Source: Desulfocapsaceae bacterium (lineage in GTDB: Bacteria; Desulfobacterota; Desulfobulbia; Desulfobulbales; Desulfocapsaceae). From it: a stretch of 64,000 bases of DNA. The stretch lies in the NCBI GenBank assembly GCA_030653035.1, contig JAUSAB010000023.1, positions 4,282 through 68,281 on the forward strand, read 5' to 3'. The stretch's first letter is position 1. Every line of letters begins with the position of its first letter. Below the pieces are notes generated by a model, which saw nothing but the letters and a program-made list of their open reading frames with translations, did no database searches and had not been told where the DNA came from. The translations under genes and the position numbers were made by a program. This document shows positions 8,492-58,159 of the stretch, in pieces.

Positions 8492-8586
8492 TGCGGGCGC
8501 CGGAGAACTCGGAAAAGAAAAAAGCTTAATTCTGCCAGACTTGATTATCGGTCAGATGAGGTCTGCAAGTCAACTGGAGATTGGCG

Positions 8587-9657: not shown

Positions 9658-9659
9658 TA

Positions 9660-15525: not shown

Positions 15526-15534
15526 GGTCTCGCC

Positions 15535-23059: not shown

Positions 23060-23971
23060 TTATTCCTTGGCAAAGAGCAGGGCTGCCCATTCCTTTTTCT
23101 GCTCCTGCCGGTTCAGCGAAAATCCCAATGCGGTAAAACAGGCGACAATATTGGTTACCTGTTGCCCGGCAAGGAGGCCGGAGAGGATCAGCTGACCGCC
23201 ACTTGCCGTCAAACGGCCAAGATCAGGGGCCAGTTCCAGCAGCACGTCATGGACAATATTGGCGATCACCAGGGAGAAAGGTGCGGTTAACGAGGCGAGG
23301 GGGGTGATCTGCACCTCCATAATCTGTTGCAACTTGTTGATTTCGATATTTTTCTTTGCTGCGCTTACGGCCTCAGGATCGTTGTCAATGGCCATGACCC
23401 TGGAGGCACCAAAAAGGGCGGCGGCCATTCCCAAGATCCCGGTACCGGTGCCCACATCAAGGACGCTGGTGTTTGATTTTCCCGCCAAGGCCGCCTGTAC
23501 AAGCTGCAAGGAGAGGCTGGTGGTGGCATGATGGCCGGTGCCAAAGGCCATGCCCGGGTCCATGACAATGACCTGTTCCTGCTCTTTGGGCTGATACTCC
23601 TCCCAGGTGGGGACGATGATCAGGCCGGGGATAATGGCAAAGGGCTTGAAATGTTCCTTCCAGGTTGCCGACCAGTCCTCGTCCTCGATAAAGGTGGTGG
23701 TGATGGTGGGGACGGCAACCTCAAAGATCGTCGCCAGCTCCTGCAGATGACTGGCGAGCTGTGTCAGGATGAGATTCGTATCCGGCTGATCCTCCTGATT
23801 CTTGTCAAACCAGGCGTTGAGTGTGGCTGTATCTCCTGGCTGATCCACGGCAAGCTCTACTCCTGCGCCGCTTATCCCCATCATGAAATCTTCAATCGCA
23901 TCGATCAGAACCGGATCGGTGGTAATAGAAACCTTGAGCCACTGGCGGGTTGAGTTGGGTTGTAAAGTCAT
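23060..23971 (-). CDS. prmA: Ribosomal protein L11 methyltransferase
   Basis: PrmA layout (W..HF.PF...IVP.WE, DPGMAFGTGHHATT, SAM motif VLDVGTGTGILGMAAALFGA, DNDPEAV). Confidence 0.9.
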   Translation of the reverse strand: MTLQPNSTRQWLKVSITTDPVLIDAIEDFMMGISGAGVELAVDQPGDTATLNAWFDKNQEDQPDTNLILTQLASHLQELATIFEVAVPTITTTFIEDEDWSATWKEHFKPFAIIPGLIIVPTWEEYQPKEQEQVIVMDPGMAFGTGHHATTSLSLQLVQAALAGKSNTSVLDVGTGTGILGMAAALFGASRVMAIDNDPEAVSAAKKNIEINKLQQIMEVQITPLASLTAPFSLVIANIVHDVLLELAPDLGRLTASGGQLILSGLLAGQQVTNIVACFTALGFSLNRQEQKKEWAALLFAKE

Positions 23972-24321
23972 TGTCTGGTTCTCCTGGCGTTGTCGATCTG
24001 GCTTCAGCCCGTTATTCTTGAGAGACGCCCCTGACGGTTGTCATCTTCTTTGGAGTCCCATGAAAAATTGTCTTTTTGACCAATCTCTGCGTTGTGCAAA
24101 AAAAATTTATCCTTGTAATATCAGCTATATGCTTGCAGTAAATTTTTTCTTACGCCTTGATCTTGCGCAAAAATCCTGATTTTTCAAGAGACTCTCTGAT
24201 CAAAGATTTTTATGAAACCTATCAAGGATATTTCTTGACAAGGGGCTGCTACCTGTTATTTTTCTTCAAATAATCCAATTATCCACTCAAGTCACCCTGA
24301 ATTTCAGATAAGGCAGATGTT

Positions 24322-26244
24322 ATGGAACATACCATACACTTTTTACCCGATGATATCCGTGTCAAAGTTGCACCCGGAGAAAATTTACTGACCGCTGCGG
24401 CTGCCGCCGGGGTCTATATCCATGCCTATTGCGGCGGGGACGGGGTCTGCGGCAAGTGCAAGGTGCATCTGGAACAGGGCGAGGTGGAAACTGATCATGC
24501 CGCTACCCTTAAACAGGCCGACTATGAGAAAGGGATTCGCCTGGCCTGCAAGACCCGGGTGGTATCGGATATTACGGTGCGGATTCCCGACACGATCAAG
24601 TCGGACGGCAAGGCCCTGAAACGGGAGCCCAAGACCACCCGGGCCATTTCCGCCCGCTCCATGGAGACCCTGGTCGGCACCTGGAAGATTGATCCGCCGG
24701 TGGGCAAACTGTTTCTTAAACTGTCGCCGCCCAGTATGGATGACAATGTCTCGGATATGCAGCGCTTGATGCGGGCCATAAAAATTGCGATGCCGGATAA
24801 TCCCGAACCCAACTATGACCACCCCCAGCTGATCCGGGAACTCTCCGGGATCCTGCGCGAGGCGGCCTGGGAGGTGACGGTTATCCTCCTGCACGGTAAG
24901 GGGGCGACCGAGCCTGACCGGATTATTGCAGTCGAGCCGGGGGATACCACCGACCGTCTCTATGGTCTGGCCATTGATATCGGCACCACCACGGTCAACG
25001 GGATCCTCATTGATCTGAACAGCGGCGAGGTCATCGTCGACGGTTCAGGCTATAATGCCCAGATCGGCTATGGCGAGGATGTTATCTCCCGTATGATTTA
25101 TGCCGCCCGTCCCGGCGGACTGAAGACCCTGCAGGAAAAGGTGGTCTATACCATCAATGGCATCATTGAAGAGATGTGCCACAAAGTGATGATCAGCCCC
25201 AGTGATATCAGCTACATAATGACTGCCGGCAACACGGTCATGGCCCATCTGCTGCTCGGCATCAATCCCCGTTATATTCGCGAGGCCCCGTATGTGCCCA
25301 GTGTCAGCCAGTTCCCGCTGACCAAGGCCGCCGATCTCGGTATCATGGCCCATCCCTCGGTCCGGCTCTTTCTCTATCCTTGTATCTCGTCTTATGTGGG
25401 CGGCGATATTGTGGCTGGGGTTCATGCCTGCCAGATGCACAAGAGCGAGCAGATATCGCTGTTCATTGATATCGGAACCAACGGTGAGATTGTGGTCGGT
25501 AATCAGGAGTGGATGGTCTGCGCTGCCTGCTCGGCAGGTCCGGCTTTTGAGGGCGGCGGCATCAAGCACGGGATGCGGGCCAGTCAGGGGGCCATAGAAA
25601 ATTTTCACATCCATCCCGAGACCTATGACCCGATGATCGTCACCATCGGTCATACCAAACCCAGGGGCATCTGCGGCTCCGGCCTGATCTCCATTGTCTC
25701 CGAACTGCTGGAGGCCGGTGTTATTGATCCTCAGGGCAAATTCAACCGGGAGCTGAATCATCCCCGGATTCGTGAGGGCGAGGATCGGTGGGAGTATGTT
25801 CTGGCCTGGGGCCATGACTCCATGACCGGTGAGGATGTGGTCATCACCGAGGTGGATCTGGACAACCTGATGCGGGCCAAGGGCGCCATGTATGCCGGAT
25901 ACCAGACCCTGCTCGAGTCGGTGGGCCTGGGATTCGGCGATCTGGACCGTATTATCCTTGCCGGCAATTTCGGCGCCTATATCGATCTGGAACGGGCCAT
26001 CTGCATCGGCCTGCTGCCGGATATTGACCGCGAGCGGTATTACTATATAGGCAATGCCTCGCAGCTGGGTTGTCAGATCAGTCTGCTGGATCATCGTCGT
26101 TTCCGGGATCGGGTGGATGTGCGCAAGCTGATGACCAATATGGAGTTGTCGGAGAATCCCGACTTTATGAATCATTATATGGCCGCTCTCTTCCTGCCGC
26201 ACACCGACATGAGTCTATTCCCATCGGTGCATCTCAAGAAATAA
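24322..26244 (+). CDS. Corrinoid activation/regeneration protein (RACo/AcsV-like: 2Fe-2S ferredoxin + ASKHA ATPase, DUF4445)
   Basis: N-terminal plant-type ferredoxin cysteines (YCGGDGVCGKCKV...LACK). ASKHA phosphate motifs (GLAIDIGTTTV, FIDIGTNGEIV, CSAGPAFEGGG). It lies next to a methyl-THF:corrinoid methyltransferase gene. Confidence 0.85.
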   Translation: MEHTIHFLPDDIRVKVAPGENLLTAAAAAGVYIHAYCGGDGVCGKCKVHLEQGEVETDHAATLKQADYEKGIRLACKTRVVSDITVRIPDTIKSDGKALKREPKTTRAISARSMETLVGTWKIDPPVGKLFLKLSPPSMDDNVSDMQRLMRAIKIAMPDNPEPNYDHPQLIRELSGILREAAWEVTVILLHGKGATEPDRIIAVEPGDTTDRLYGLAIDIGTTTVNGILIDLNSGEVIVDGSGYNAQIGYGEDVISRMIYAARPGGLKTLQEKVVYTINGIIEEMCHKVMISPSDISYIMTAGNTVMAHLLLGINPRYIREAPYVPSVSQFPLTKAADLGIMAHPSVRLFLYPCISSYVGGDIVAGVHACQMHKSEQISLFIDIGTNGEIVVGNQEWMVCAACSAGPAFEGGGIKHGMRASQGAIENFHIHPETYDPMIVTIGHTKPRGICGSGLISIVSELLEAGVIDPQGKFNRELNHPRIREGEDRWEYVLAWGHDSMTGEDVVITEVDLDNLMRAKGAMYAGYQTLLESVGLGFGDLDRIILAGNFGAYIDLERAICIGLLPDIDRERYYYIGNASQLGCQISLLDHRRFRDRVDVRKLMTNMELSENPDFMNHYMAALFLPHTDMSLFPSVHLKK

Positions 26245-26518
26245 TGGCGTCGCCAAAATGCCCAAATACTTCGTTGCCCTGCATCCTTCGTCACTGCGGC
26301 GTACCCAAAAGTACGCCTCATTCCTCAGGATTGGCGCGCCTCGTCTTTGAACATTTTTGCTTAGCCATCTTCTTGGGGACTTTTTAGAGACCGTTCTGCG
26401 GCCTGGGCTGAGAGTGGCCCTGACATTGACAGAAGAATGAATAATGGGTAAAATAAAGAGCTTTATTGATATCAATCCCTCTATTTAAGAGATAACTCAT
26501 CGAGACAAGGAGAACAGT

Positions 26519-27415
26519 ATGTCACAGAAAGTAATGGCAATTGCCGAAAGCATCAATATCATGGGAAAACGTAGCGGCACCGCCATGAAAGAGCGGATTC
26601 AGGGGCCCGTCCAGGAAATGGCCAAAGAAGAAGCGGCGGCTGGTGCTTCTTACCTTGACCTGAACATCGGACCTGCCCGCAAAGATGGTGTTGAGCTGAT
26701 GCCCTGGGTTGTGCAGACCGTTGAGGCCGTTACCGATGTTCCTCTCTGTCTCGATACCACCAATATGGATGCCATGACCGCCGGTTTCAAGGTGGTAAAA
26801 AATAAAGAACTGACCATCATGAACTCCATCTCTGCCCAGCCCGAGCGTATGCAGAATTTGATCCCGGTGGCCGCCGAGGCCGGATGCAATGTCATCGCCC
26901 TGCTTTGGGGACCGGATGGCATGCCGCGGGATTCAAACGAGCGCGCCTCCATGGCCGTTGACCTGATGATGGCCCTGAGCGAGGCCGGGATTCCCAATGA
27001 GAAGATGCTCTTTGATCCCATCGGCACCCCCATTACCCTCGGCGCCGATCAGATTGCCTCCGGCCTTGAGTTCATGATGATGCTGGCCGACATTGCCCCC
27101 GGCGCCGGTTCCACCGTCGGTCTGTCCAATGTCTCCAACGGCGTGGCCGAGCATCTGCGCAAGTATCTGGATCGCACCTATCTGATCATGCTGATGAAAT
27201 ACGGCATCACCACCGCCATCGTCAATGCCTACGATACCGAGCTGATGGCCATCTGCAAAGGCGAGCGTCAGGCCCATGTGGATATGGTTCATGCCATGAT
27301 GGATGGTGATGATCCCGATCCTTCAACCCTGAAAGACGTGGCCCTGCAGCATTACAAGACCTACAAGGCCCTGTCCGGTCAGTCGGTCTTCTCCGAGTCG
27401 TGGCTTGAGCTGTAA
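26519..27415 (+). CDS. acsE: Pterin-binding methyltetrahydrofolate:corrinoid/Fe-S protein methyltransferase (AcsE/MeTr-like)
   Basis: IAESINIMG..., YLDLNIGP, LCLDTTN, NSIS and LSNVSNG are motifs of the DHPS-like pterin-binding barrel used by MeTr. Genomic context with RACo supports the call. Confidence 0.75.
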   Translation: MSQKVMAIAESINIMGKRSGTAMKERIQGPVQEMAKEEAAAGASYLDLNIGPARKDGVELMPWVVQTVEAVTDVPLCLDTTNMDAMTAGFKVVKNKELTIMNSISAQPERMQNLIPVAAEAGCNVIALLWGPDGMPRDSNERASMAVDLMMALSEAGIPNEKMLFDPIGTPITLGADQIASGLEFMMMLADIAPGAGSTVGLSNVSNGVAEHLRKYLDRTYLIMLMKYGITTAIVNAYDTELMAICKGERQAHVDMVHAMMDGDDPDPSTLKDVALQHYKTYKALSGQSVFSESWLEL

Positions 27416-27443
27416 CGGTTGACTGGTACAATCTTTGTTTGAT

Positions 27444-27480
27444 GATGCCCCTTCGCGTATGCCAAGGGGCATCGTCGTTT
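27444..27480 (+). terminator. Rho-independent terminator after acsE
   Basis: 10-bp GC-rich stem GATGCCCCTT / AAGGGGCATC (27444-27453 and 27464-27473) with a 10-nt loop, followed by GTCGTTT. Confidence 0.6.
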
Positions 27481-27493
27481 CAGGAGGGTGGAA

Positions 27494-28042
27494 ACTATGT
27501 TGCGGGTCTCATCACATCATCTCGTCTATGGTTCTCTTCGGGATTATCTCACCGACGAGGAACTGACTGACACCGATGACGAGCGGAACAGGCAGCAACT
27601 GGCACGCATGATGGTTGAGGAAAAGGGCTATGCCAAAGAAGACCTTGAACCCCGCCGCTTTATCGAGACTCTTTTTTCCGCCCTGTTTGTCCGCTCCACC
27701 ATTGAGCTTGTGGTCAGCCTTGAGGGGAAGAGGTTCATGATTATCCGCTACGCCCCTGGCTCCCTGGTCACCCGAGAACGTTCGGCCATTGCCGCGGCCA
27801 GGGTATTGGAAAAGCAGTATCAGATCCCGCTGGCCGTGGTCACCAACGGCCGGGACGCGGAGCTGCTTGATACCGCCACCGGCCAGGTGCTGGTCACCGG
27901 CATGGAGGCCATCCCTGACTGCCGGCAGGCGCGGGAGCTTCTTCCCACCCTGGTCTTTCGCGAGAGGATGGAAGGCAAGAAGCGGGAGCGGGAACTGCGG
28001 ATTCTTAATGCCTTTGATGTGGAGATATGCTGTCGAAGATAG
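27494..28042 (+). CDS. HsdR-N-terminal-like (PD-(D/E)xK fold family) small protein, possibly catalytically degenerate
   Basis: The pattern ...EEKGYAKEDLEPRRFIE...IELVVSLEGKRFMIIRYAPG...IPLAVVTNGRDAELLD resembles the HSDR_N_2 family, but RY stands where E-x-K is usual. Called from memory of the family only. Confidence 0.45.
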   Translation, partial: TMLRVSSHHLVYGSLRDYLTDEELTDTDDERNRQQLARMMVEEKGYAKEDLEPRRFIETLFSALFVRSTIELVVSLEGKRFMIIRYAPGSLVTRERSAIAAARVLEKQYQIPLAVVTNGRDAELLDTATGQVLVTGMEAIPDCRQARELLPTLVFRERMEGKKRERELRILNAFDVEICCRR

Positions 28043-28143
28043 GGGTCAGGGGATTTTTGAAGAGGTCGGATTTGTGTTTAGTGGGACGGCCTGATGTCTT
28101 AGATTTCATTTTAAATACTTTTTGAGTAATATTCCTTTCTATT

Positions 28144-31100
28144 ATGGATATACCAAGATTCACAGACGAAAATATTGCCCCAGAACGAAAAAAATCCCGC
28201 GCCGGCGATGGCTTCCAGGAGTTCGTCGCCGCTCTGCTTGTTAGAGAATTTGAAGACCTCACACTGTTCCCTATCGGAGGCAAGGACGGGGCCATCGACC
28301 ACACCATCCATTTTGCCGACGGAAAAGGAGTTGTCGAATGCAAAGATATCCAAGGCGGCTATGATCACGCCCTCAAGGCTTGGTTGGCAGTTGCCGATAA
28401 ACTCCGCCGCAATATCACGCCTGTCGACGGCCCTCCAACAGGACAAGGCCAATACCGCCCCTGGTACAACACCAAATCACCGATAAACACCTACCTTTTC
28501 TGCACCAGTTCCGAAATCGGCAATGAAGGGCAGCACCAGAACCTGGAAAGGGAAATCCAAGAGTTCTTTGCGGAAATATCTTGCAATTGTATTCACTTAT
28601 GCCATCTGTCCACAATTCAGGTAGAAGTCCTGCCCTGGAACCGGCTCCAAGCCAAAGTTCAAAAAAATGCCGATCTTGCTTTCAAGTGGTTCCCAGCCTG
28701 TCGTCCCACCGGTCTCAGCCCCCTAAAATCCTCCACGGATGCCCGCCTCAACTTCCGCAGCTACCTGGAACATCATCAGCTACCATTTTACAGTGTTGAG
28801 ATGTTTGTTGCGTCAGGCTTTTTGAGTCAAGACAATGCGCTGCCCGAGGTGTCCCACCTCTTCAGCCATTTGACAGGGGAAGGTGGCAATGGCCTGATTA
28901 TCACCGGCAAGGGAGGAATTGGCAAAACAAGACTGGTGCTTGAGATCGGTCGCCATGCAGAGCAAGAAGGTTGGTTGGTGCTGCAGGCCGGCAAACGATT
29001 CGAGGCCGCCTCTATCGACAGCCTTTGCCAGCGCATCACGACTACCCAGCCCATACTTATCCTGTTCGACTACGTGGAGGCTCAAAAGGGATTTTCCGAA
29101 AGCATTGACACCATCAACAATTACAACGAGGAATATGGTTACCGTATCCGCTATGTTGCCAACTGCCGAACTAATTTTTACAGCACCATTCGTGACATGG
29201 AGGGCCACAGGGAGGTCAACCTGAGTCCTGGCGGAATAAACGCCGGATTTTTCTTAACATACCGAGAGGCCATCGTACGTCACATCCTGGAGCATTGCGG
29301 ACTGGATGCACCCGAAGAGTATATTGCCCTATGTCGCGATCTCCCCATCTTGGCGGTTTTTATCAGCTTTCTCCGCCAAAATGGCCGGATGGCGGAACTG
29401 GCGGAATTGCGCCACGAAGAGAGTTTCGTGCCCTGGCTCAACAAACGCCTCACAGCAAGTCTCTCTAGCCTCTACCCGAACAACCCCGACGGCATGCGAC
29501 GGGATCTGCACCGGCTCCTGGTGCAATATCCCCTGTCGGAAAGGGGCCTGGAGCTGTTGGGCGATCAGGAGGAGCACCTGTATAGCCTGCACGTCGGACT
29601 TGCCAACGATGGCTGGGTTCTTGTCGATGACAGTGATTCATGGGTAAGCGCCCACGACATCTTCGTCGATCAGATTCTTGGTGATTTTTTCCAGCATTCC
29701 CAGTCCGCCCAACCAGAGATCAAGCAGGCACTAAATCTTTCCCGACGCCTCGCCAATATCAGATCCGCCCTGATCAGCTACCAGCGTATTTCCGAGGAAC
29801 TGGAATCGCTCCCCTGGAAGGACATGATCACCGAACAGATTGATAGCCATGGGGAAGAGTGGCTCCAGGTCCGCAGTATATTGCTGACCACACCCCTGCT
29901 GCGTCCCCAACAAGCGCTGGAATTGCTGGATGGTCGGCCCGAATTCTGGGAGGGGTTCGAGTGTCAGATTAGCACCCAAAATGCCCTTGGCTTTCTTGCC
30001 AGGCGCCAGGTCAGAGGGGAGTTGCGGCTCCCGTCACCTCTTCTCGACACCCTCTTGGTGTGGTTGACCAAGGCAGCGACCTGTCCGGGTCGAAGTAATT
30101 TCTTCCTCAACTGGGCACTGCGTCTATCCCCTACCAAATTCCAGGATGTCGTGCGTGATTGGATACAGGCCCAGCCACGGTTATTCCAAAGCCATTACCT
30201 CATGGTTGCTTGGCTGGAGGCTAAACTCCCGGCCATGGAGATCGTGGCGGCGGTAAAAAACTGGTGCAGCGCTTTCCCCAGTGATAGTCATCTGACCTTT
30301 TTGGCAAAGGCATGGCTGGATAACGGTGCGTCTTTGCAAGAGGCCAGGGATCAAATTTTGGCTTGGTTGCAAGCTGGCAATAACTGTACCGTGCTCGAAG
30401 CACAATTTGTCTACTCAAGCTGGCTCAATGCGGGCGGGGGAATCGAAGAGATCAAAGAGTTTATCCTGCAGTGGCTGCAAGCCGGCAATAACTGTACCGT
30501 GCTCGCAGTCAGCTTTATCTACAAAAGCTGGCTCGATGCGGGCGGGGGAATCAAAGAGGTCCAAGAGTTCATCCGGCAGTGGCTGCAAGCCGGAAATAAC
30601 TGTACCGCGCTCGAAGCACAATTTGTCTACAAAAGCTGGCTCGATGCGGGCGGTGGAATCGAAGAGGTCAAAGATTTCATCCTGCAGTGTCTGCAAGCCG
30701 GAAATAACTGTACTGCGCTCGAAGCACAATTTGTCTACAAAAGCTGGCTCGATGCGGGCGGTGGAATCGAAGAGGTCAAAGAGTTCATCCGGCAGTGGCT
30801 GCAATCCGGCAATAACTGTACCGCGCTCGAAGCACAATTTGTCTACACAAGCTGGCTCGATGCGGGCGGGGGAATCGAAGAGGTCAAAGAGTTCATCCTG
30901 AAGTGGCTGCAAGCTTGCAATAACTGTACCTCGCTCGATGCCAGATTTGTCTACAAAAGCTGGCTTGATGCGGGTGGGGGAATCGAAGAGGTCAAAGAGT
31001 TCATCCGGCAGTGGCTGCAATACCTCGACAATGCTGAACAAGAGAATGTCGATTTTCTCCTTCGAAGCTGGATGAAAGCGCATGGCGATTTTTCCTTGGT

Positions 31101-31743
31101 TCAGGAATCTGCCTGCCGGTGGCTGACAGCCAATAAAGAGAAATACGATGCGGTATATATCACCAAATACTTAGCAAGGGTTCGAGATTTGCCCGTTGCC
31201 ACCGCTAAGGACATCTTGAGCTGGTGTCGTTCCTTTTGCGGGAACGAAGACGCCATTTCCCGCTTGGCTAATTTGGGGCTAAACCTTCAACACGACGCTA
31301 TCATGGAGGAAGCCATGGAGACCTGGGCGCTTGTCCTGCCCCATGTCCTGCACCGGACAACCCTTATAGAGTGGCTGCAGAATCACGTTACCAACATCTT
31401 TATTAATCTGCGCTACAACCCCGGCCTGAGACGGGGTCAGAACACAGAAAAGCTGGTGACTCTATTCGCGTTATGGGTCCGGGACACGCGTTCCTTTGCG
31501 CAACTTCGGGTGTACCCAAACAATACTTCCCAACAAACCAAGGCCATCTTTCAAATGTTAGTGGATGGCCTTGCCCAGGGCCAGCTTGACGGAAAACGTG
31601 ATAAGGAAGGCATTCGGAACTTTCTCGTCTGGATCAATTCCTGGCGACCGGAAAGAAAAGAAAAAATCAAAGCCGCGTTTAATGTTCTCATTAACACTCC
31701 GGAACTCAAAGAATTATTTTATTGTATAGAGTTTAATAGCTAA
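28144..31743 (+). CDS. STAND-class P-loop NTPase with N-terminal Mrr-like PD-(D/E)xK nuclease motif and C-terminal 36-aa helical repeat array (Avs/bacterial-NLR-like candidate defence protein)
   Basis: N-terminus GFQEFVAALL...GGKDGAIDH...VVECK (D48/D52...E65-x-K67 by my count). Walker A ITGKGGIGKT (28906-28929) and Walker B ILILFDYVE (from 29053). The C-terminal ~450 aa shows a periodic WLxxG.N...FVYxSWLxAGGxxExVxxF pattern. Confidence 0.8.
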   Translation: MDIPRFTDENIAPERKKSRAGDGFQEFVAALLVREFEDLTLFPIGGKDGAIDHTIHFADGKGVVECKDIQGGYDHALKAWLAVADKLRRNITPVDGPPTGQGQYRPWYNTKSPINTYLFCTSSEIGNEGQHQNLEREIQEFFAEISCNCIHLCHLSTIQVEVLPWNRLQAKVQKNADLAFKWFPACRPTGLSPLKSSTDARLNFRSYLEHHQLPFYSVEMFVASGFLSQDNALPEVSHLFSHLTGEGGNGLIITGKGGIGKTRLVLEIGRHAEQEGWLVLQAGKRFEAASIDSLCQRITTTQPILILFDYVEAQKGFSESIDTINNYNEEYGYRIRYVANCRTNFYSTIRDMEGHREVNLSPGGINAGFFLTYREAIVRHILEHCGLDAPEEYIALCRDLPILAVFISFLRQNGRMAELAELRHEESFVPWLNKRLTASLSSLYPNNPDGMRRDLHRLLVQYPLSERGLELLGDQEEHLYSLHVGLANDGWVLVDDSDSWVSAHDIFVDQILGDFFQHSQSAQPEIKQALNLSRRLANIRSALISYQRISEELESLPWKDMITEQIDSHGEEWLQVRSILLTTPLLRPQQALELLDGRPEFWEGFECQISTQNALGFLARRQVRGELRLPSPLLDTLLVWLTKAATCPGRSNFFLNWALRLSPTKFQDVVRDWIQAQPRLFQSHYLMVAWLEAKLPAMEIVAAVKNWCSAFPSDSHLTFLAKAWLDNGASLQEARDQILAWLQAGNNCTVLEAQFVYSSWLNAGGGIEEIKEFILQWLQAGNNCTVLAVSFIYKSWLDAGGGIKEVQEFIRQWLQAGNNCTALEAQFVYKSWLDAGGGIEEVKDFILQCLQAGNNCTALEAQFVYKSWLDAGGGIEEVKEFIRQWLQSGNNCTALEAQFVYTSWLDAGGGIEEVKEFILKWLQACNNCTSLDARFVYKSWLDAGGGIEEVKEFIRQWLQYLDNAEQENVDFLLRSWMKAHGDFSLVQESACRWLTANKEKYDAVYITKYLARVRDLPVATAKDILSWCRSFCGNEDAISRLANLGLNLQHDAIMEEAMETWALVLPHVLHRTTLIEWLQNHVTNIFINLRYNPGLRRGQNTEKLVTLFALWVRDTRSFAQLRVYPNNTSQQTKAIFQMLVDGLAQGQLDGKRDKEGIRNFLVWINSWRPERKEKIKAAFNVLINTPELKELFYCIEFNS
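30355..31002 (+). repeat. Six in-frame tandem copies of a 108-bp (36-aa) unit inside the STAND gene
   Basis: Units start at 30355, 30463, 30571, 30679, 30787 and 30895. They are near-identical at the DNA level (ILxWLQAGNNCTxLEAQFVYxSWLDAGGGIEEVKEF). More degenerate units flank them on both sides (~30140-31250). Confidence 0.9.
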
Positions 31744-31866
31744 TAGCCATTCTCAGCAAACACAAGGAAATATGAAAGGAATATGAAAGCCGTGGAATAT
31801 GCATTCTATAAGCCACGTTCATTGGCCGTCGCTGGTTACCCTTAGCATTAGCGGCTTTGCACCACC

Positions 31867-31900
31867 TTGACAAAACGTACGTATTGCCGTACGGTAACAT
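31867..31900 (+). promoter_or_regulatory. Putative yefM-yoeB promoter/operator
   Basis: TTGACA at 31867-31872, then two CGTACG palindromic hexamers (31876-31881 and 31888-31893) 12 bp centre-to-centre. This mirrors the paired-palindrome operators of YefM/YoeB loci. AAGGAG SD lies at 31906-31911. Confidence 0.4.
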
Positions 31901-31917
31901 CAATCAAGGAGAACATC

Positions 31918-32160
31918 ATGCACACACTCACGGCAAGCCAAGCACGCTCAAACCTCTACCGCATCATTGACGAAGCGGCCACAAACCATGAACCGGTAGT
32001 CATCACCGGCAAACGAAATAATGCCGTGCTTATCTCGGCTGAAGATTGGGCATCGATTCAAGAAACCATGTACTTGCTGTCCGTGCCGGGTATGCGCGAG
32101 TCCATTAGGGAAGGGTTGCAGACTCCAGTTGACGAATGTGCCAAGGAACTGGACTGGTGA
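31918..32160 (+). CDS. yefM: Phd/YefM-family antitoxin
   Basis: MHTLTASQARSNLYRIIDEAATNHEPVVITGKRNNAVLISAEDWASIQETMYLLS is a typical YefM sequence. There is a strong SD 6 nt upstream of ATG 31918. Confidence 0.85.
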   Translation: MHTLTASQARSNLYRIIDEAATNHEPVVITGKRNNAVLISAEDWASIQETMYLLSVPGMRESIREGLQTPVDECAKELDW

Positions 32161-32420
32161 CTTGGGAATTGGTTTATACAAAACACGCCCAGAAAGATGC
32201 TCAGAAATTATCTTCAGCAGGTCTGAAAGAAAAAACACAGGCACTTTTGATGGTTCTGCGTGAAAATCCATTTCAAAATCTACCACCTTATCAAAAATTG
32301 GTTGGTAATTTGTCCGGCGCTTATTCACGGCGGATCAACATTCAGCACAGGTTGGTTTATCAAGTTTTAGAAGATCATAATGTCGTTAAAGTGCTGAGAA
32401 TATGGTCCCATTACGAATAG
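32157..32420 (+). CDS. yoeB: YoeB/Txe-family mRNA interferase toxin
   Basis: WELVYTKHAQKDAQKL...NPFQNLPPYQKLVGNLSGAYSRRINIQHRLVYQV...VKVLRIWSHYE. The GTG start overlaps the antitoxin stop (GTGA). Confidence 0.85.
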   Translation: MTWELVYTKHAQKDAQKLSSAGLKEKTQALLMVLRENPFQNLPPYQKLVGNLSGAYSRRINIQHRLVYQVLEDHNVVKVLRIWSHYE

Positions 32421-32525
32421 CGCCGCTAACCGTTTGACATGGCCATGACAAAAAAAGGACCCTCGGCCTTCATGTGCAGGAAAACGAACCCAGAACCCTT
32501 TCTCCTAACCCCGATGAACGGGATA

Positions 32526-32586
32526 AGTGCCTTTCGCAGATTATTTTCTTGCAAAAAAAAAACAAGAAAATAATCTGTAAGGCACT
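32526..32586. repeat. 61-nt long hairpin/palindrome
   Basis: AGTGCCTT-tcg-CAGATTATTTTCTTG-c(a)10-CAAGAAAATAATCTG-t-AAGGCACT. Arms of 15 bp perfect plus 8 bp perfect, with an A10 loop. Confidence 0.7.
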
Positions 32587-32603
32587 AAAGAGTCCTTGCA
32601 GCC

Positions 32604-33008
32604 ATGAACGCCACCAACATCCTTTATGTCATTATCACCATTGTTATTGCTGACTATTTCCTGGAAAGGGGGCTCAGCTTTCTCAACTGCCGGAGTATCG
32701 CCACGCAGCTGCCTGATGAGGTGAAGGGGATTTACAGCGAGGAGAAGTATCAACAGTCCCAGGAGTACAAGAGGGCAAACTGCCGGTTTGAGCTGGTCAC
32801 CGCCATCCTGCAGGTTGTGCTCCTCCTGGCCCTGCTCATGGGTGGCGGCTTTGCCTTTATCGACGGGCTTGTCCGGGGCATGGTGCAGGCGGAGTTGCTG
32901 GTCTCTCTGCTCTTCTTTGCCCTGCTTTTTTGGTATGTCTCCCGAGAGCGGTTCAAGCTCTGGTCAACGCGAAGGCCGATCTTACTTACCAGCGCGCTCC
33001 GGGCATGA
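32604..33008 (+). pseudogene. Truncated N-terminal fragment of an M48/Ste24-type metallopeptidase
   Basis: The first ~105 aa (TM helix, LPDEVKGIYSEEKYQQSQEYKRANCRFELV, TM helices) look like the Peptidase_M48_N region. No HExxH catalytic domain follows, and the frame ends after an unrelated tail. Confidence 0.45.
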
Positions 33009-33362
33009 CGATTCTGACAGAGGCGGGAGCGTGTCCGAAGGCTGAAAAGATCCTGTGGGCTGCCGGTGCTCACCGAGATGAAGAAAGTGGCAAAGTCGGG
33101 GCGTACTGTACCTGGCCAGCAGGGATAAGTTGTAACTGTTTGACAATGAAACGGTTCATGGTAAAGTATGCAAACGAAATCCCATCTGGGTAGCAGTGTT
33201 TTTAAAGAATTCACGAATGATTGGTTTTTCGCCTCGTCCGCTTTCACACCAAGGCATTGTTGGGCCGTACGAATTAGATCTGGGTGCTGACATTCTGGTG
33301 TGGAATATATAACTGCCCAATTAAGCCGTTAATTTGTTGATCGTCAAAGAGAAGGAACAATC

Positions 33363-34721
33363 ATGGGAATAGCAAAAAATAACCCGACAGACTGGACAAA
33401 GTCGAGCTGGCATAATTTTACTGCCCTGCAGCAGCCCAAATGGCCGGATATGGATGTACATGATAAGGTTTTGGCCAATCTTACTCGTCTGCCGCCTCTG
33501 GTCTTTGCTGGTGAAATCCGCGACTTAAAGGCGATGCTGGCCAAGGCCGTGGTTGGAGATGCCTTTCTCCTCCAGGGTGGTGATTGTTCGGAAGACTTTT
33601 CCCAGGTGACGGCCCCTAGGATTCGGGAGACCCTGAAGGTGCTTCTGCAGATGGCTGTTATTCTTACCTATGCCGGTGGTAAACCGGTAATCAAGCTGGG
33701 CCGCATTGCCGGTCAGTTTGCTAAGCCGCGTTCGGCTGATACCGAGATGGTGAATGGGGTCGAGCTTTCCTCCTATCGGGGCGATATGGTCAACAGCCCT
33801 GAGCCTATTGCCGCTGCCCGTATCCCTGACCCCAACCGGATGTTGCAGGGATATAATATGGCTGCCTCTACCTTGAATCTGTTGCGGGCCTATACCCGCG
33901 GCGGATTTGCCGCCCTGCACCGGGTCCATGCATGGAACCAGGAATTTGTGGTGCAGTCGCCTATGGGGAGATCCTATGAGCGTCTGGCCAAGCATATCAG
34001 TCAGGCCATCCAGTTTATGGAGACCATTGGTATTCCCACTGATATTCCGCAGATCAAGGAAGCCAATTTTTTTACCTCACATGAGGCCCTGCTCCTTGGC
34101 TATGAAGAAGCCTTGACCCGTGAGGATTCCACCAGCGGCGGCTGGTACGACTGCTCTGCCCATATGGTGTGGATCGGGGAGCGGACCCGGCAGCTGGATG
34201 GCGCCCATGTTGAGTTTTTGCGCGGGGTCTTGAATCCCATTGGAGTGAAGATCGGGCCTGATTATGATCTTGACAACGTGAAGCGGCTGATCGAGACCCT
34301 GAATCCTGAGAACGAGGCGGGCCGGCTTACCTTGATTACCCGTTTGGGGATGAAGAAGATTGAAAAAGTCCTACCGCCGCTACTGCGTGAGGTGAAAAAA
34401 GAAGGGTATAATATCGTGTGGAGCTGCGACCCGATGCACGCCAACACCTATACCGCCGAGTCCGGCCACAAGACCAGAAATTTCAACGATATTCTCTCCG
34501 AGATCACCTGTTTTTTCGAGACTCACTGGGCTGAGGGCACCATCCCCGGCGGTATCCATCTGGAGATGACAGGCGACAATGTGACCGAGTGTACCGGCGG
34601 TGCCCGCAACATCATTGACGCCGAACTTTCCAACAATTACCTGACCACCTGTGATCCCCGTCTGAACGCGGAACAGAGTCTGGAGGTTGCCTTCCAGATT
34701 GCCGAGATGATCAGAAGCTGA
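33363..34721 (+). CDS. Class II 3-deoxy-7-phosphoheptulonate (DAHP) synthase
   Basis: 452 aa. W..SSW......QQP.WPD start, then LLQGGDCSE.F, GRIAGQFAKPRS, and WIGERTRQLDGAHVEF..G..NPIGVK motifs characteristic of plant-type class II DAHPS. Confidence 0.9.
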   Translation: MGIAKNNPTDWTKSSWHNFTALQQPKWPDMDVHDKVLANLTRLPPLVFAGEIRDLKAMLAKAVVGDAFLLQGGDCSEDFSQVTAPRIRETLKVLLQMAVILTYAGGKPVIKLGRIAGQFAKPRSADTEMVNGVELSSYRGDMVNSPEPIAAARIPDPNRMLQGYNMAASTLNLLRAYTRGGFAALHRVHAWNQEFVVQSPMGRSYERLAKHISQAIQFMETIGIPTDIPQIKEANFFTSHEALLLGYEEALTREDSTSGGWYDCSAHMVWIGERTRQLDGAHVEFLRGVLNPIGVKIGPDYDLDNVKRLIETLNPENEAGRLTLITRLGMKKIEKVLPPLLREVKKEGYNIVWSCDPMHANTYTAESGHKTRNFNDILSEITCFFETHWAEGTIPGGIHLEMTGDNVTECTGGARNIIDAELSNNYLTTCDPRLNAEQSLEVAFQIAEMIRS

Positions 34722-34744
34722 GCACAATAACCTATCTTTGCAAC

Positions 34745-39061: not shown

Positions 39062-42000
39062 TCAAGAAAATGTAATTGCCATCGGCAGGGTTTTTTCTTC
39101 AGTGCCACGGACTCGCTGTCCCCAGAGTGGGCACTGCTTGCCGATACACTCCTTGTTTTTCAGGTACTGATCACAGTGAAGAGTCGCCTCTGCTTGCAGG
39201 GATACCGAAAGCAGTTCGGTTGAGAGTCGGGCTGTTTCGCTTAAGGCGATATAGGTCTCGCGCTGGCAGCAGCGGCCTCCCTTGCGGCTGGCCAGGGCCG
39301 TCAGGATCCGGCCGGAAAACTCCTGGGCCAGTTGACGCGGACCGGGGGTCAGCGGCGTGGCCGCAAAAATTGTAGCGACGCCAATGCCAATGCCGATGGC
39401 CGCCCCGCATGCGCCCCAGAATCCACATACCCCGCCAGGCACATCGGCGCCGCGATTGATAGCGGTCAAGATCTCTTGAGGACCGATCTTGCCGCCGCCA
39501 TTGCGATAACAGGCGAGCAGGATGCCGGGAATCATGGCATGATGTTCCGGGCCGTGCATGGGGATGGAGGGGTGGCTGCGGATGATGGTGAGCAGTCTGA
39601 TCAGATCCTGTTCATTGGTGGTGGTACAGATGGTCTTGATTACCTCCAGGCCGTTTTCCTGATGGCACTGGTTGCAGACAAAATGGCTCTTTTCGCAGCA
39701 GCCATCGGCAAGGTATGTTTGACCGCAATAGTGGCAGGACATTTTCAGGGGTTCTGTGAAGTAGAGAAGCTCCTTACCGCAGCACATGCAGCCTGATTCT
39801 TGGCGGGCGTCGTGGTTGTCCACAGCCTCCGGTGGCGCGCAGCAGGAGGCTGCGGCGTCTGAGGCCATGGTGGTGCTTGACGGAGCGCAGCAGCAATTGG
39901 TCATGACCAGATTGGTGACCGCTCCTTGTTCATCAAGGATAAACACCGAATCATCCAGAAGTGCAATGTCGGCATGAGGAATTGTGGTACGTCTTCCTTT
40001 GACCAGCAAAACTCCGCTTTCCGTGTAGACAGCCCTATACGGCCCTCGGTAGACGACGGCCATGGAAGGCCTAGTGTCGTGGGCGCCAAGGACGGCGCAG
40101 GAACGACCGACGGTGATGGTGTCCACTTTTTCTTCCTCTTGCGGTCGCTGTGCCTGGTAAGTGAGTGAAAAAAAATCCATTCCTTCCACCTGACGATAGG
40201 GGAAGCGCTTTATCAGATGGATGCCTGTAAATCCCGCTGCCTCCAGCATGGCCACCAGCTCTTCCTGCTGCATGGCCCCTCCCAGACATTCTCCGCGGTA
40301 GAGCACATTGTTCTTGATGCTGGAAGGAATGGGGGTATCGGTGATGATATCTGAGATCACCATCCTGCCGCCAGGTTTCAGAATCCGGTAGATTTCCCGG
40401 TAGGTCTGGCGTTTATTAGGACTCAGATTGATGACACAGTTGGAGATAACAATATCGGCGCAATTATCCTCAAGCGGGATCTGCTCCAGAAATCCTCGGC
40501 GAAATTCCACATTGTCATAGCCAAGGCGGGCCACGACCTCTTGTTTTGAACTAGTGGCAAGATTGAGCATCTCCATCGTCATGTCAATGCCAAAGACCCG
40601 TCCCTGCGCGCCGACGGCGGCCGCGGCCATGAAGCATTCCACACCTGAACCGGAACCCAGATCGACCAAGGTCTCGCCTGGCTGCGGGTCGGCATCCGTC
40701 ACCGGACTGCCGCAGCCGTACGAGCGTTTTCGCGAGTCCTCAGGGATAAAATCAGCCAGGTCTTGGGCCGGGGCCAGCGGGTTGACAATATCCATGTTGG
40801 CGGAGAGGGCCGCCTGCCCATAAAATTCACGGACCTGGCTGTGTCCGTGGTCTGAGGCTAGAGAGATCACGCAGTTGCAGTGGGTCAGGGTCACGTTGCT
40901 GCCTGTTGCCTCCGGGTCAGGGCAGTCATGACGGATATCGCCCATACGCAGGGCTATGGCAGCACGGCTTGATATCGGCGAGAAGGCAGCTTGTCTGCTG
41001 ATCAGGCGCAGGACAATCTTGTCATACAATTCCACATAGGGGTCATGGCCAACCCATTCCCCGCCGGTCAGAAAGCTGTGATCACTGTCGCCGCCGCCAA
41101 TGATGAACTTCAGGGGATTCTTTTGATAGCGCGGGGAATCAATCAGGGAGGCATGGCGCAGGGTTTCGAGTACCGGGCTGGTCTGCCAGACCGTGGCCAG
41201 TCCCTGGGCCAGATCCCCGCAGGCGGCCTCGGCCAGTCCGATCAGGGCTGGGGATGGATAGACAATACAATCCGGCCCAATGGCCACGGATTCCCAGCCA
41301 CCATTGGACAGATCATGGCGGGTGCCGGGGGTGGAAAAGACCTGAGCGCGGATGGTTTCGATATTGTCAATGGGGAGTCCGCACTGGTCGGCCCGATCCC
41401 ACGCCGCTACCAGATGGGGGAAGATCTCCGCCGGTGGGACAAATTGTTCCCGGCTGCCCTTGCCGCGGATAAAATGGTAAAGCAGATGGATGCTGGCGGC
41501 CCCGATGGTGGCCGCCAGGGTGACCAGTTCGGTCAGATCGGCCACATTGGCCCGACTGACGGCAATGGAGAGGGTAAAGGGGATTTCCGCCTGACGCAGG
41601 GCGGCAAGGTTGTTCAGGAGTTTCTGATACGCTCCCGTGCCACGCAGGCTGTCATGGGCCTGTTGCAGCCCGTCGAGGCTGACCTGCAGGTGCAGGCGGT
41701 CAAGGCCTTGCAACGTCGGTATATTTTTTTTCAGGAGCGTGCCGTTGGTCAGGATAACGGCATGGGCCTGGGGGTTTTCGGACAAAAAGAGGGCCAGCCA
41801 CGGAAAAAAATCAGGGTAGAGAAAAGGCTCGCCGCCGGTGAAATAAAAGAGGCTGCAGCCAAGCGCTAGAGCCTGCCTGGCGGCCATGTCCAGCTGCGTC
41901 TGGGGCAGAGTGCGACTTTTGGCCGGAGAGGCTGCAAACAGGCAGTGGCTGCAACTGAGGTTGCAACGGTCGGTCAGATGAAACCAGCATTCTTTGAGGC

Positions 42001-56729: not shown

Positions 56730-56829
56730 TTTTCTACCTTTGAGATTTTTGTAAGATTCTTTGCAGAGAAAAAACGTGTAAAAGTGTTGACGAAGATCCA
56801 GTGAGTATGCTATAAGTGGCCACAAATAT

Positions 56830-56905
56830 TCCTCGGTAGCTCAGCTGGTAGAGCAGGTGACTGTTAATCACCCTGTCGGCGGTTCGAATCCGTCCCGGGG
56901 AGCCA
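56830..56905 (+). tRNA. tRNA-Asn (anticodon GTT)
   Basis: Cloverleaf folded by hand: acceptor TCCTCGG/CCGGGGA, D stem GCTC/GAGC, anticodon stem GGTGA/TCACC with loop CTGTTAA, T arm GGCGG-TTCGAAT-CCGTC, encoded CCA. Confidence 0.9.
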
Positions 56906-56951
56906 GCAATCTCAAGTCCAACTCTTGAATTGGACTTTCTTTTTTTTGTGT

Positions 56952-57029
56952 CGGGGCGTAGCGCAGTCTGGTTAGCGCGCCTGCCTTGGGAGCAGGAGGC
57001 CGCAGGTTCGAATCCTGCCGCCCCGACCA
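56952..57029 (+). tRNA. tRNA-Pro (anticodon TGG)
   Basis: Acceptor CGGGGCG/CGCCCCG, D stem GCGC/GCGC, anticodon stem CCTGC/GCAGG with loop CTTGGGA, T arm GCAGG-TTCGAAT-CCTGC, encoded CCA. Confidence 0.9.
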
Positions 57030-57070
57030 TAAATCAAGGACTTAGCGCATTTTGGATTGTTGAAAATTGG

Positions 57071-57095
57071 CGACAATTAGCGACAATTAGCGACA
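57071..57095. repeat. 10-bp tandem repeat CGACAATTAG x2.5 just 3' of tRNA-Pro
   Basis: Read directly from the sequence. It sits at the transition from GC-rich core to AT-rich island. Confidence 0.8.
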
Positions 57096-58046: not shown

Positions 58047-58058
58047 TCGGCGTGTTCG

Positions 58059-58145: not shown

Positions 58146-58159
58146 TACAATCAAAAAAT

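Follow-up and report, generated by a model that had tools for sequence, protein, structure and literature searches.

Fungal NLRs of the HET-E, HET-D and NWD types carry WD40, ANK or TPR repeats with high internal conservation (Dyrka et al. 2014; PMC4986451), a property that, together with hypervariable positions, is thought to yield new specificities fast. The same phenomenon has been reported for bacteria, in NLR-like proteins, found mostly in Actinobacteria and Cyanobacteria, that have NB-ARC or NACHT domains and TPR or WD repeats which are recognisable as such and 80-90% identical internally; in the available part of Dyrka et al. 2020 (10.1101/2020.01.06.895854, citing Marold 2015 and Hu 2017) the pattern is noted only in passing, with no analysis by site, and only for repeats of these kinds. 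Another group of STAND proteins, Avs1-21 (Gao 2022; PMC13581612; PMC11564622), is encoded by single large genes in accessory DNA and combines a nuclease-type effector, a STAND NTPase and a C-terminal helical-repeat sensor; the sensors characterised so far are irregular, bilobed, shape-complementary domains and not regular arrays (PMC13581612). Finally, STAND sensors of multicellular bacteria can be diversified by DGRs, through mutagenic retrohoming that targets a C-type lectin fold (Dore et al. 2024, PMC10907252).

The gene considered here lies in a window of 64,000 nucleotides, the whole stretch of DNA analysed, and its product comprises an N-terminal nuclease-like domain, a STAND NTPase, an alpha-solenoid containing a repeat array and a conserved C-terminal helical domain (Table 1). 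The comparison with fungal NLRs drawn in the initial annotation is accurate (PMC4986451): shared are the effector-NOD-repeat layout, units that are about 80-90% identical, differences in repeat number between related genes, concerted evolution and a small number of replacement positions. High repeat identity with few exposed changing positions is a combination known in fungal receptors and noted in bacterial ones. Unlike the fungal proteins, the window protein is bacterial, its effector is nuclease-like, its NTPase is neither of the NACHT nor of the NB-ARC type, its repeat matches no Pfam model for TPR, ANK or WD, and the differences in repeat number are seen between homologues and not between alleles of the gene itself. 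From the bacterial NLRs covered by the available part of Dyrka et al. 2020 it differs in belonging to another STAND clade, in its unclassified 34/36-aa repeat and in its Desulfobulbales-like genome. The tripartite architecture that characterises Avs proteins is present, in a single large gene within accessory DNA, but the sensor contains a regular array of near-identical units whose copy number varies in the family. With the DGR-associated sensors the protein has in common a C-terminal sensor of a bacterial STAND protein under dedicated diversification, which here would proceed by homogenisation and shuffling of repeats in an alpha-solenoid; no reverse transcriptase is found among the annotated ORFs of the window.

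Table 1. Positions of the features of the repeat-bearing STAND gene and its surroundings in the window.
Feature	Coordinates	Strand	Basis
Segment of 5.35 kb missing from a syntenic relative (STAND gene, YefM/YoeB pair, gene fragment)	28042..33392		Collinearity
Complete ORF, 1199 aa	28144..31743	+	ORF list and translation
N-terminal domain, aa 1-200, putative PD-(D/E)xK restriction-endonuclease-like effector	28144..28743	+	Motif and topology
Walker A (P-loop) GKGGIGKT, aa 255-262	28906..28929	+	Sequence
Walker B-like strand ILILFDYVE, aa 304-312	29053..29079	+	Sequence and model
Diverged N-terminal helical-hairpin units, aa 683-740	30190..30363	+	Repeat HMM, model
Six near-identical 108-bp (36-aa) units, aa 741-956	30364..31011	+	Tandem Repeats Finder, alignment
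Diverged C-terminal unit, aa 957-992, WLQYLDNAEQENVDFLLRSWMKAHGDFSLVQESACR	31012..31119	+	HMM anchor 36 aa past the last core unit
Conserved C-terminal helical domain, aa 993-1199, and stop codon	31120..31743	+	Homologues and model
Phd/YefM-type antitoxin gene	31918..32160	+	Pfam PhdYeFM_antitox, E=4.7e-22
YoeB/ParE-type toxin gene, overlapping the antitoxin gene	32136..32420	+	YoeB_toxin E=4.4e-10, ParE_toxin E=1e-7

The AlphaFold2 model of the protein has a mean pLDDT of 90.7 and a pTM of 0.70. Since Pfam gives no match for the N-terminal domain, and neither does a PDB sequence search, its putative assignment to the PD-(D/E)xK nucleases is one by motif and topology. Within the motif GKDGAID ... 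ECK, residues D48, G49, I51 and K67 are invariant and E65 and C66 at least 90% conserved among 48 sequences, and the modelled domain follows the order alpha-beta-beta-beta-alpha-beta (H20-32, E39-41, E53-57, E60-67, H73-91, E114-121), with GKDGAID at or before strand E53-57 and E65-C66-K67 on strand E60-67, in agreement with the core topology of these enzymes. The P-loop NTPase core has both the Walker A motif and the Walker B acidic residue of STAND proteins, with strands and helices alternating in the model: G255, G258, G260 and K261 of the former and D309, Y310 and E312 of the latter are invariant in the 48 sequences, the Walker B-like segment forming beta strand E303-308. Pfam similarity in this region is weak, AAA_16 (E=1.1e-5, 26.4 bits) and nSTAND_NTPase5 (E=8.9e-4, 19.5 bits) lying below their cut-offs of 32.6 and 34, respectively; nSTAND_NTPase5 is found in 15 of 25 family members with a best E of 1.8e-8. 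For the NTPase, Pfam searches of the window protein and 25 relatives return nSTAND5, AAA_16 and nSTAND3 only, with no match to NACHT or NB-ARC.

At the level of the whole protein, PADLOC, NCBIfam and Pfam contain no family that scores above its cut-off. The sole PADLOC match, to Avs4 (E=0.0086, 11.3 bits), covers 53 residues (248-300) of the P-loop; no defence family validated by experiment, and no described Avs family, is matched by profile. Neither the protein nor the family profile finds anything significant among PDB sequences beyond P-loop noise, and among the Foldseek matches STAND proteins appear at low TM-scores (STAND-TPR 6mfv, Avs5 9jap and 9nc9, and 9zjz). The C-terminal domain, helical in the model and without a Pfam match, is recognisable across homologues by the consensus ...AVY.TKF.A.Q.D.P..TVKDIL.WC..FP..EDALWRL....

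Tandem Repeats Finder places the array at 30364-31020 (period 108, 6.1 copies, 90% matches, score 1044), and units cut at 30364+108k translate in the frame of the long ORF as WLQAGNNCTALEAQFVYKSWLDAGGGIEEVKEFIRQ-like segments. The initial annotation had described six in-frame, near-identical 108-bp units at 30355-31002, inside a sensor domain and between strongly diverged neighbours. The array is the same, although read there in a register 9 nt earlier; it does belong to the helical repeats in the C-terminal part of a STAND (NLR-like) protein, and its units show pairwise DNA identities of 84.3-96.3% and a mean amino-acid identity of 81% (69-92%). Identity above 85% over at least 100 aa, as used in Dyrka et al. 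2014, is reached by the central three units only (units 3-5, 108 aa, 86-92%), against the six-unit mean of 81%. The divergence of the neighbours also holds. The N-terminal units, whose repeat HMM anchors lie 34 aa apart ahead of the array and whose helices are modelled at H683-692, H701-710, H717-726 and H731-743, are 14-38% identical to the six in DNA, and the C-terminal one is 44-47% identical. With flanking units at only 14-47%, the contrast with the core is real and far beyond chance. Along the array, adjacent-unit DNA identity runs 0.32, 0.54, 0.84, 0.86, 0.94, 0.93, 0.78 and 0.47, and the same centre-high profile, with the interior units most alike, is present at five homologue loci.

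Among the six units, 30 of the 108 nucleotide sites are variable, as are 22 of the 36 codons and 16 of the 36 residues, so that the earlier description of variation as confined to a few codons overstates the case. Fifteen of the 16 variable residues had been listed correctly (in a numbering equal to the present one plus 3), the V/I exchange in FVY having been missed; of the scaffold said to be invariant, NNCT and SWL stand, whereas FVY, AGGGIEE and WL do not (unit 2 has FIY and AGGGIKE, unit 4 CL). Synonymous sites are alike too, with a pooled pS among the six units of 0.18-0.21, and the informative sites form a mosaic: of 36 pairs of them, 13 do not pass the four-gamete test. A two-unit (216-bp) super-repeat, prompted by the alternation L/R/L/R/L/R at position 35, was discarded, identity between units i and i+2 being no higher than between i and i+1.

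According to two AlphaFold2 models, both confident, each unit consists of a helix (positions 13-22), a GGG turn and a second helix (27-36) that runs into positions 1-3 of the next unit, connected by a loop (positions 4-12) with a 3-10 turn at NCT. With two helices and a 3-10 turn per unit, and with a family period of 34 aa but one of 36 aa in the window, the repeat agrees only in part with the 34-residue helix-turn-helix unit of TPRs. Membership of the TPR family was rejected, as no TPR model matches the window repeats (TPR_2 matches one of 25 relatives, at E=0.0076) and Foldseek pairs the repeat domain best with RESC6 (TMq 0.68), mitoribosomal repeat proteins (0.63), and PUF and importin-alpha proteins (about 0.4). 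With PUF/Pumilio, ARM, importin-alpha and HEAT-like solenoids the array shares a unit of about 36 aa made of a short turn and two helices, but no sequence similarity, and it is acidic; this is a likeness of fold and not membership.

The repeat is not restricted to this protein. Fifty-eight homologues with 27-40% identity, from many phyla, carry 2-25 copies of it. The family is rare: at E<=1e-30, a search of 1.84 billion representatives yields 337 clusters (50% identity). Nearly all homologues have a period of 34 aa, the ancestral one in the family, and the window array has a 2-aa insertion in the loop. No close relative of the gene was recovered: the best homologues found have about 40% identity, an exhaustive search of representatives gave nothing above about 41% full-length identity except one 587-aa fragment at 50%, and a scan of genome contigs with the protein gave 61 pattern matches and no confirmed one, and a look-up of the exact product found no record. 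The effector is swapped in some homologues, for a caspase or for a SIR2 domain at the C-terminus, as is typical of conflict systems, and gene neighbours around five homologues show no conservation.

Units resemble one another more within proteins (66-91% identity within arrays) than between them (about 50%), the nearest unit being in the same protein for 154 of 173 units. Unit number was compared on pairs of close homologues within the family. Pairs that are 75-88% identical outside the array differ by two to eight whole units: 10 versus 6 units in P0010 and P0017 (87% and 84% identical outside the array), 18 versus 15 in P0025 and P0028, 8 versus 5 in P0034 and P0051, and 15 versus 7 in P0004 and P0012. 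In close homologues, the edge or cap units correspond one to one (29-32 of 34 residues identical) and the interior units many to many. The likeness of units within proteins, the whole-unit differences and the recurrence of variability hotspots described below lead to unequal recombination with a local diversification hotspot, which is well supported. Unequal recombination or concerted evolution, as the initial annotation had supposed, also fits the low pS and the mosaicism within the window array.

Three alleles occur at just four positions, 10, 12, 14 and 18, located directly before the first helix and on one face of it; in a family frame in which the W of SWL is 0, these correspond to -9 (or -9/-10), -8, -6 and -2. 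On a helical wheel, the variable residues 14, 18 and 22 lie at 100, 140 and 180 degrees, opposite F15, V16, S19 and W20. Per-site variability in the window array correlates with that of 24 others (Spearman 0.66, p=2e-4). Twenty of 25 arrays have position -6 among their three most variable, and in each of the six arrays analysed at the DNA level pN at this position (0.34-0.59) is higher than pS over the whole array. Minimum-event counts give 50:17 replacement to synonymous changes at the hotspots and 64:64 elsewhere (Fisher p=0.0012), a contrast that is inflated because the sites were picked post hoc, after inspection of amino-acid variability. When exposed sites of the two helices are compared, the contrast is not significant (p=0.12), with about 3.8 replacement events per site at exposed second-helix sites and 14 at -6 and -2. 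Across the array as a whole, pN/pS ranges from 0.34 to 0.72 in the family and is about 0.5 in the window, pairwise values that take no account of phylogeny or gene conversion and that indicate purifying selection on most of the unit. The per-site comparison proposed in the initial annotation recovers about four hotspot positions but, in the window itself, a pN/pS of about 0.5; with only six units, positive selection is not demonstrable from the window alone, and the evidence for selection comes from the family.

The gene is located in an accessory islet. Window positions 23148-28041 and 33393-34725 are collinear with positions 5132-9836 and 10022-11354 of a Desulfobulbales contig, L009, which has 185 bp in place of the 5.35 kb of the window. 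No direct or inverted flanking repeats and no integrase were found at the islet. An HSDR_N_2 gene immediately upstream (27488-28042) was considered as a partner of the STAND gene and dropped because the relative without the STAND gene also has it. The islet and its toxin-antitoxin pair provide a context that is suggestive of an anti-phage role.

Synonymous likeness, centre-high identity, mosaicism and whole-unit changes point to the array as a product of crossing-over, conversion or slippage between units. In the mechanism proposed, the gene would have been acquired within the small accessory islet, and unequal crossing-over, gene conversion or slippage between units would homogenise the interior of the array and change the number of units, while replacement changes would accumulate, despite homogenisation, at three or four positions in the pre-helix loop and on one face of the first helix. 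These positions would form a ligand-contact stripe along the modelled solenoid, and gain, loss and reshuffling of units may alter binding. By analogy with the Avs proteins characterised so far, an invader protein would, once bound, set off NTP-dependent oligomerisation and activation of the N-terminal nuclease; a phage ligand is what the architecture and the islet context, and only these, would suggest. Taken as a whole, this explanation probably holds: a single-gene, Avs-like (NLR-like) STAND protein with a PD-(D/E)xK-type nuclease domain, a P-loop NTPase and a helical-repeat region, whose C-terminal solenoid contains a real, in-frame array of six recently homogenised units exposing a contact stripe.

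Other explanations account for part of these observations. The array might be a recent neutral expansion, in which young duplicates produced by slippage or unequal crossing-over drift at exposed residues and the solenoid, lying between the NTPase and the C-terminal domain, acts as a structural spacer or scaffold and not as a tunable binding surface. An array-wide pN/pS of about 0.5 and the many changes among the six units that are singletons agree with it, as does the location of most variable residues of both helices on polar faces, which relaxed constraint alone predicts; the conserved flanks on either side are also compatible, and length variation could tune geometry. It is nevertheless unlikely: against it stand the recurrence of one to three positions as the most variable in independent arrays, the excess of pN over array-wide pS at -6, and the concentration of replacement events at -6 and -2 relative to the second helix. 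An assembly artefact, with collapsed or chimeric units in a number and order unlike those of the genome, would be in keeping with a known hazard of short-read metagenomes, tandem 108-bp units of 84-96% identity, and with an apparently uncultured, Desulfobulbales-like source and no identical gene on record. It is rendered highly improbable by the six units being all distinct, by a longest exact repeat of 68 nt, shorter than usual reads, by a frame that stays intact through the array into the conserved C-terminal domain, and by the presence of like arrays in dozens of independent assemblies.

As for what the solenoid recognises, discrimination between self and non-self (kin), as in the fungal HET/NWD incompatibility NLRs, could replace phage sensing. 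The evolutionary signature is that of these NLRs (PMC4986451), the same proposal has been made for STAND sensors that are diversified in multicellular bacteria (PMC10907252), and the host lineage is Desulfobulbales-like, but nothing points to a multicellular organism, the islet shows no evident partner and no gene for an allelic ligand, and homologues occur in many phyla; this is the least credible of the readings weighed. A modular reader of linear polymers, taking an extended peptide or single-stranded nucleic acid unit by unit in the manner of PUF, PPR or importin-alpha proteins, with the hotspots as a code for each unit and with shuffling of units as the way to a new target sequence, is very doubtful. 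The specificity residues of PUF and PPR proteins are placed similarly, at the helix start and in the preceding loop, and the hotspots here occupy i and i+4 of the helix start and the loop before it. The Foldseek matches to PUF (with its 36-aa repeats), importin-alpha, RESC6 and mitoribosomal proteins and not to TPR, the lack of any match to the Pfam TPR model, and the regularity of the array compared with the bespoke Avs sensors point the same way; on the other side stand TM-scores to PUF and importin-alpha of only about 0.4 and the acidity of the array, with a net charge of -12 over 216 aa, for which reason nucleic-acid binding, prompted by the PUF-like folds, was judged unlikely, a basic peptide still being conceivable. 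A more speculative reading, with a rather slim chance of being correct, makes the solenoid a programmable reader, in which three or four residues per 34/36-aa unit (-9/-10, -8, -6 and -2) would form a code and recombination would rewrite specificity; the target might then be an extended basic peptide or some other linear polymer and not a folded phage protein.

The regime known from fungal NLRs is now documented at the DNA and family levels in a nuclease-STAND family that is uncharacterised and whose repeat is unclassified; this yields candidate contact positions and natural unit-number variants for direct testing. For annotation, such arrays are easily mis-assembled, and long spurious ORFs arise in their other frames. 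A regular, expandable array represents a type of Avs-like sensor unlike the bespoke ones solved so far; and, if it were indeed a programmable reader, it would parallel, in bacteria and by means of recombination, the shuffling of repeats in fungal NLRs, with a mode of recognition unlike that of the shape-complementary sensors of characterised Avs proteins.

The repeat region of the STAND gene is a single tandem array that is real, in frame, homogenised at the DNA level and mosaic. The initial annotation had reported near-identical 108-bp repeats at 30355-31002; these belong to the present array, cut 9 nt further upstream (unit position n of that annotation is n-3 here), and the observation is borne out. 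Cut at 30364+108k, the six units (30364-31011) follow the pattern WLQAGNNCT[V/A/S]L[E/A/D][A/V][Q/S/R]F[V/I]Y[S/K/T]SWL[N/D]AGGGI[E/K]E[I/V][K/Q][E/D]FI[L/R][Q/K]. Their pairwise DNA identity is 84.3-96.3%, and that of the flanking units on both sides, in the same register, 14-47%; mean amino-acid identity is 81%, with 86-92% for units 3-5. Variation had been described as confined to a few codons, but it reaches 30 of the 108 nucleotide sites, 22 of the 36 codons and 16 of the 36 residues, six codons of the unit differing only synonymously. All but one of the variable residues had been listed (15 of 16), whereas FVY, AGGGIEE and WL, taken to be invariant, become FIY and AGGGIKE in unit 2 and CL in unit 4. 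Three alleles occur at only four positions: 10 (V/A/S), 12 (E/A/D), 14 (Q/S/R) and 18 (S/K/T). Pooled over the six units, the Nei-Gojobori estimates (pS 0.178, pN 0.092, ratio 0.51) place the array overall under purifying selection.

From the perspective of its origin, 13 of 36 informative site pairs fail the four-gamete test, so that the units are mosaics of one another or bear recurrent changes. The strict Leu/Arg (CTG/CGG) alternation at position 35, L/R/L/R/L/R, gives a hint of duplication by blocks of two units, but a 216-bp period is absent from the overall unit identities. An alternation resembling that of position 35 is also seen in the homologous protein P0008 (EAGFVYE / EAEFVYK). Short-read assembly of the array is feasible, since no exact repeat in it exceeds 68 nt and no two units are identical, although some collapse may have occurred. 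Two long ORFs crossing the array in another frame or strand (191 and 222 aa) are most simply by-products of a repeated unit free of stop codons, and annotation pipelines might take them for genes.

According to two AlphaFold2 models, the second covering aa 683-1030 (pLDDT 94.5, pTM 0.86), each unit comprises a loop (positions 4-12) in which N-C-T forms a 3-10 turn, a 10-residue helix 1 (13-22), a GGG turn and a 13-residue helix 2 (27-36, extending into 1-3 of the next unit). On a helical wheel of helix 1, variable residues 14, 18 and 22 lie at 100-180 degrees, facing away from F15, V16, S19 and W20, and positions 10 and 12 belong to the loop just before this helix, so the three-allele positions cluster where a single helix begins. 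Structurally, the repeat domain is best matched by RESC6 (TMq 0.68), mitoribosomal helical-repeat proteins (0.63), PUF/Pumilio (about 0.4) and importin-alpha. Assignment to the TPRs was rejected, since no Pfam TPR model matches the repeat and its best structural matches are not TPR proteins; it is therefore called an unclassified helical-hairpin repeat of TPR length.

In the confident AlphaFold2 model of the whole protein (pLDDT 90.7), a continuous alpha-solenoid spans aa ~560-1030, and the C-terminal domain beyond it is helical and conserved. Foldseek matched the full model, with low TM-scores throughout, to the STAND proteins 6mfv (STAND-TPR), 9jap and 9nc9 (Avs5) and 9zjz (SAMD9), and also to karyopherin-like solenoids. 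Pfam matches to AAA_16 and nSTAND_NTPase5 are both sub-threshold, the latter model being matched by 15 of 25 relatives. PADLOC returned only a P-loop-sized Avs4 match (E=0.0086), and the protein is outside every named Avs family. Its N-terminal 200 residues, without a match in a Pfam search, carry a conserved GKDGAID...ECK motif on an alpha-beta-beta-beta-alpha-beta core and, from motif, modelled topology and established fold knowledge, are read as a putative PD-(D/E)xK nuclease-type effector.

A word-indexed search recovered 58 homologues at 27-40% identity, and an exhaustive scan across 1.84 billion representatives gave 337 clusters at E<=1e-30, among which there is no close relative of the window protein. 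Homologues retain the NTPase and the solenoid, and effectors differ in some. P0037 and P0059 place an N-terminal caspase on the same chassis, P0007 has an extra C-terminal SIR2 and ABC/OLD-like ATPase, and P0026 bears a long canonical TPR tail. In a repeat HMM the canonical period of the family is 34 aa (36 aa in the window protein and in P0046 from Methylomagnum) and unit number ranges from 2 to 25. In 25 of 54 proteins, four or more units have a counterpart elsewhere in their own array with 70% identity or higher; units are 0.66-0.91 identical within these 25 arrays but only about 0.5 identical from one protein to another, and for 154 of 173 units the nearest unit lies in the same protein, so arrays were homogenised or expanded independently in each gene. 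The DNA of five homologue loci shows the same profile as the window array (units 77-94% identical, pS 0.09-0.42), with interior units most alike and edge units diverged. Unit number changes by whole units between close relatives: in homologue pairs with 75-88% identity over the rest of the protein, the counts are 10 vs 6, 18 vs 15, 8 vs 5, 21 vs 18 and 15 vs 7. The terminal units of such pairs match one-to-one (29-32 of 34 residues identical) and the interior units many-to-many, as unequal crossing-over leaves them when the caps are conserved.

The same few positions vary most across the family. With the W of SWL set to 0, variability within arrays is highest at -6 (0.77), -8 (0.55), -2 (0.53) and -9 (0.45), that is, at window positions 14, 12, 18 and, given a loop insertion, 10, whereas W0, L1, G5, W17 and L18 are essentially invariant. 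Position -6 ranks in the top three in 20 of 25 arrays, and the per-site variability of the window array is correlated with that of the remaining 24 (Spearman 0.66, p=2e-4). In the six arrays with DNA, pN exceeds array-wide pS at -6 in all six (pN 0.34-0.59), at -9 in all six, although this frame position is out of register in the 36-aa window array, and at -2 in four. Counted as minimum events, changes at the four hotspots have an N:S of 50:17, and those at all other sites 64:64 (Fisher p=0.0012); the hotspots had been selected with amino-acid variability already in view, and neither this count nor pN/pS allows for phylogeny or gene conversion. Exposed sites of helix 1 and helix 2 do not differ significantly (p=0.12). 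Local diversifying selection at the hotspots is likely.

By the sequences of its housekeeping neighbours, the genome is Desulfobulbales/Desulfocapsaceae-like; its DAHP synthase shares 93% identity with a metagenome protein and 87% with that of a Desulfocapsa sp. MAG. The related Desulfobulbales contig L009 shares the gene order PrmA, RACo, pterin-binding protein, HSDR_N_2 and DAHP synthase, and has 185 bp in place of a 5.35-kb segment of the window, which marks the STAND gene as accessory DNA. Defence genes are usually accessory DNA. Flanking repeats or an integrase were looked for at this segment and none was found; the 134-aa ORF within it looks like a truncated gene remnant. The HSDR_N_2 gene is probably not part of the STAND system, being conserved in L009, which lacks the STAND gene. 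The neighbouring genes of five homologues bear no relation to each other, which indicates a single-gene system. Elsewhere, the stretch 56000-64000 may be another acquired segment.

Features of the STAND gene, its surroundings and other parts of the window
Feature	Position	Strand	Remarks
STAND gene	28144-31743	+	1199-aa ORF, array in frame
Tandem array	30364-31020	+	Tandem Repeats Finder: period 108, 6.1 copies, 90% matches, score 1044
Position-35 codons	30466, 30574, 30682, 30790, 30898, 31006	+	
ORF over array	30326-30901	+	191 aa
ORF over array	30415-31083	-	222 aa
Walker A GKGGIGKT	aa 255-262		invariant in 48 aligned homologues
Walker B-like ILILFDYVE	aa 304-312		invariant in 48 aligned homologues
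Small HSDR_N_2 protein gene	27488-28042		type I restriction R-subunit N-terminal, nuclease-like; directly upstream of STAND gene
5.35-kb segment	28042-33392		STAND gene, YefM/YoeB pair, M48 protease gene fragment
YefM (Phd) antitoxin and overlapping YoeB/ParE toxin genes	31918-32420		175 bp downstream of STAND gene
134-aa ORF	32604-33008		matches only N-terminal membrane helices of CAAX/M48 proteases (Peptidase_M48_N, profile 10-87 of 179)
Phosphatase gene	4908-5945	-	345 aa, dual-specificity phosphatase domain, 'polymorphic toxin / Swiss Army Knife' type (Tc-R-P, PTP-SAK); overlaps end of next
PPDK_N/PEP-utilizer gene	5930-8491		
MoxR-VWA type pair	13249-16359	-	CbbQ/NirQ/NorQ-type AAA_5 ATPase (274 aa) gene adjoining that of 758-aa protein with C-terminal VWA
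Fusion protein gene	39062-42313	-	1083 aa, radical SAM + class I methyltransferase + DUF5714
Low-G+C stretch	56000-64000		G+C 0.39-0.45 vs ~0.52 elsewhere
DDE_Tnp_1 transposase gene	58871-60364	-	inside low-G+C stretch

Recombination between units, whether RecA-mediated unequal exchange, gene conversion or slippage, would keep the units alike and would also yield new unit combinations. The hotspot residues would contact a ligand, whose binding may drive NTP-dependent oligomerisation and thereby activate the nuclease, as described for Avs proteins (PMC10907252; PMC13581612). That the array binds nucleic acid is suggested by the PUF-like fold matches of the repeat domain but argued against by its acidity (net charge -12).

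The array bears the same signature as those fungal NLRs whose WD, ANK or TPR repeats are highly conserved (PMC4986451). The fungal-type repeat shuffling first proposed is supported in part, by the homogenised mosaic array and the unit-number changes between close relatives. Dyrka et al. 2020 (bioRxiv 10.1101/2020.01.06.895854) already describe TPR and WD repeats of 80-90% internal identity among bacterial NLRs and suggest for them a regime similar to that of fungal NLRs. Characterised Avs sensors have irregular, shape-complementary TPR-like domains enveloping a folded phage protein (PMC13581612), whereas the window array is regular and expandable. No published description of such a repeat regime was found for this STAND clade and repeat type. 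The pattern itself is unsurprising to specialists; what the family supplies is a set of defined candidate contact positions, together with natural unit-number variants, for testing repeat shuffling against specificity in a bacterial NLR-like protein.
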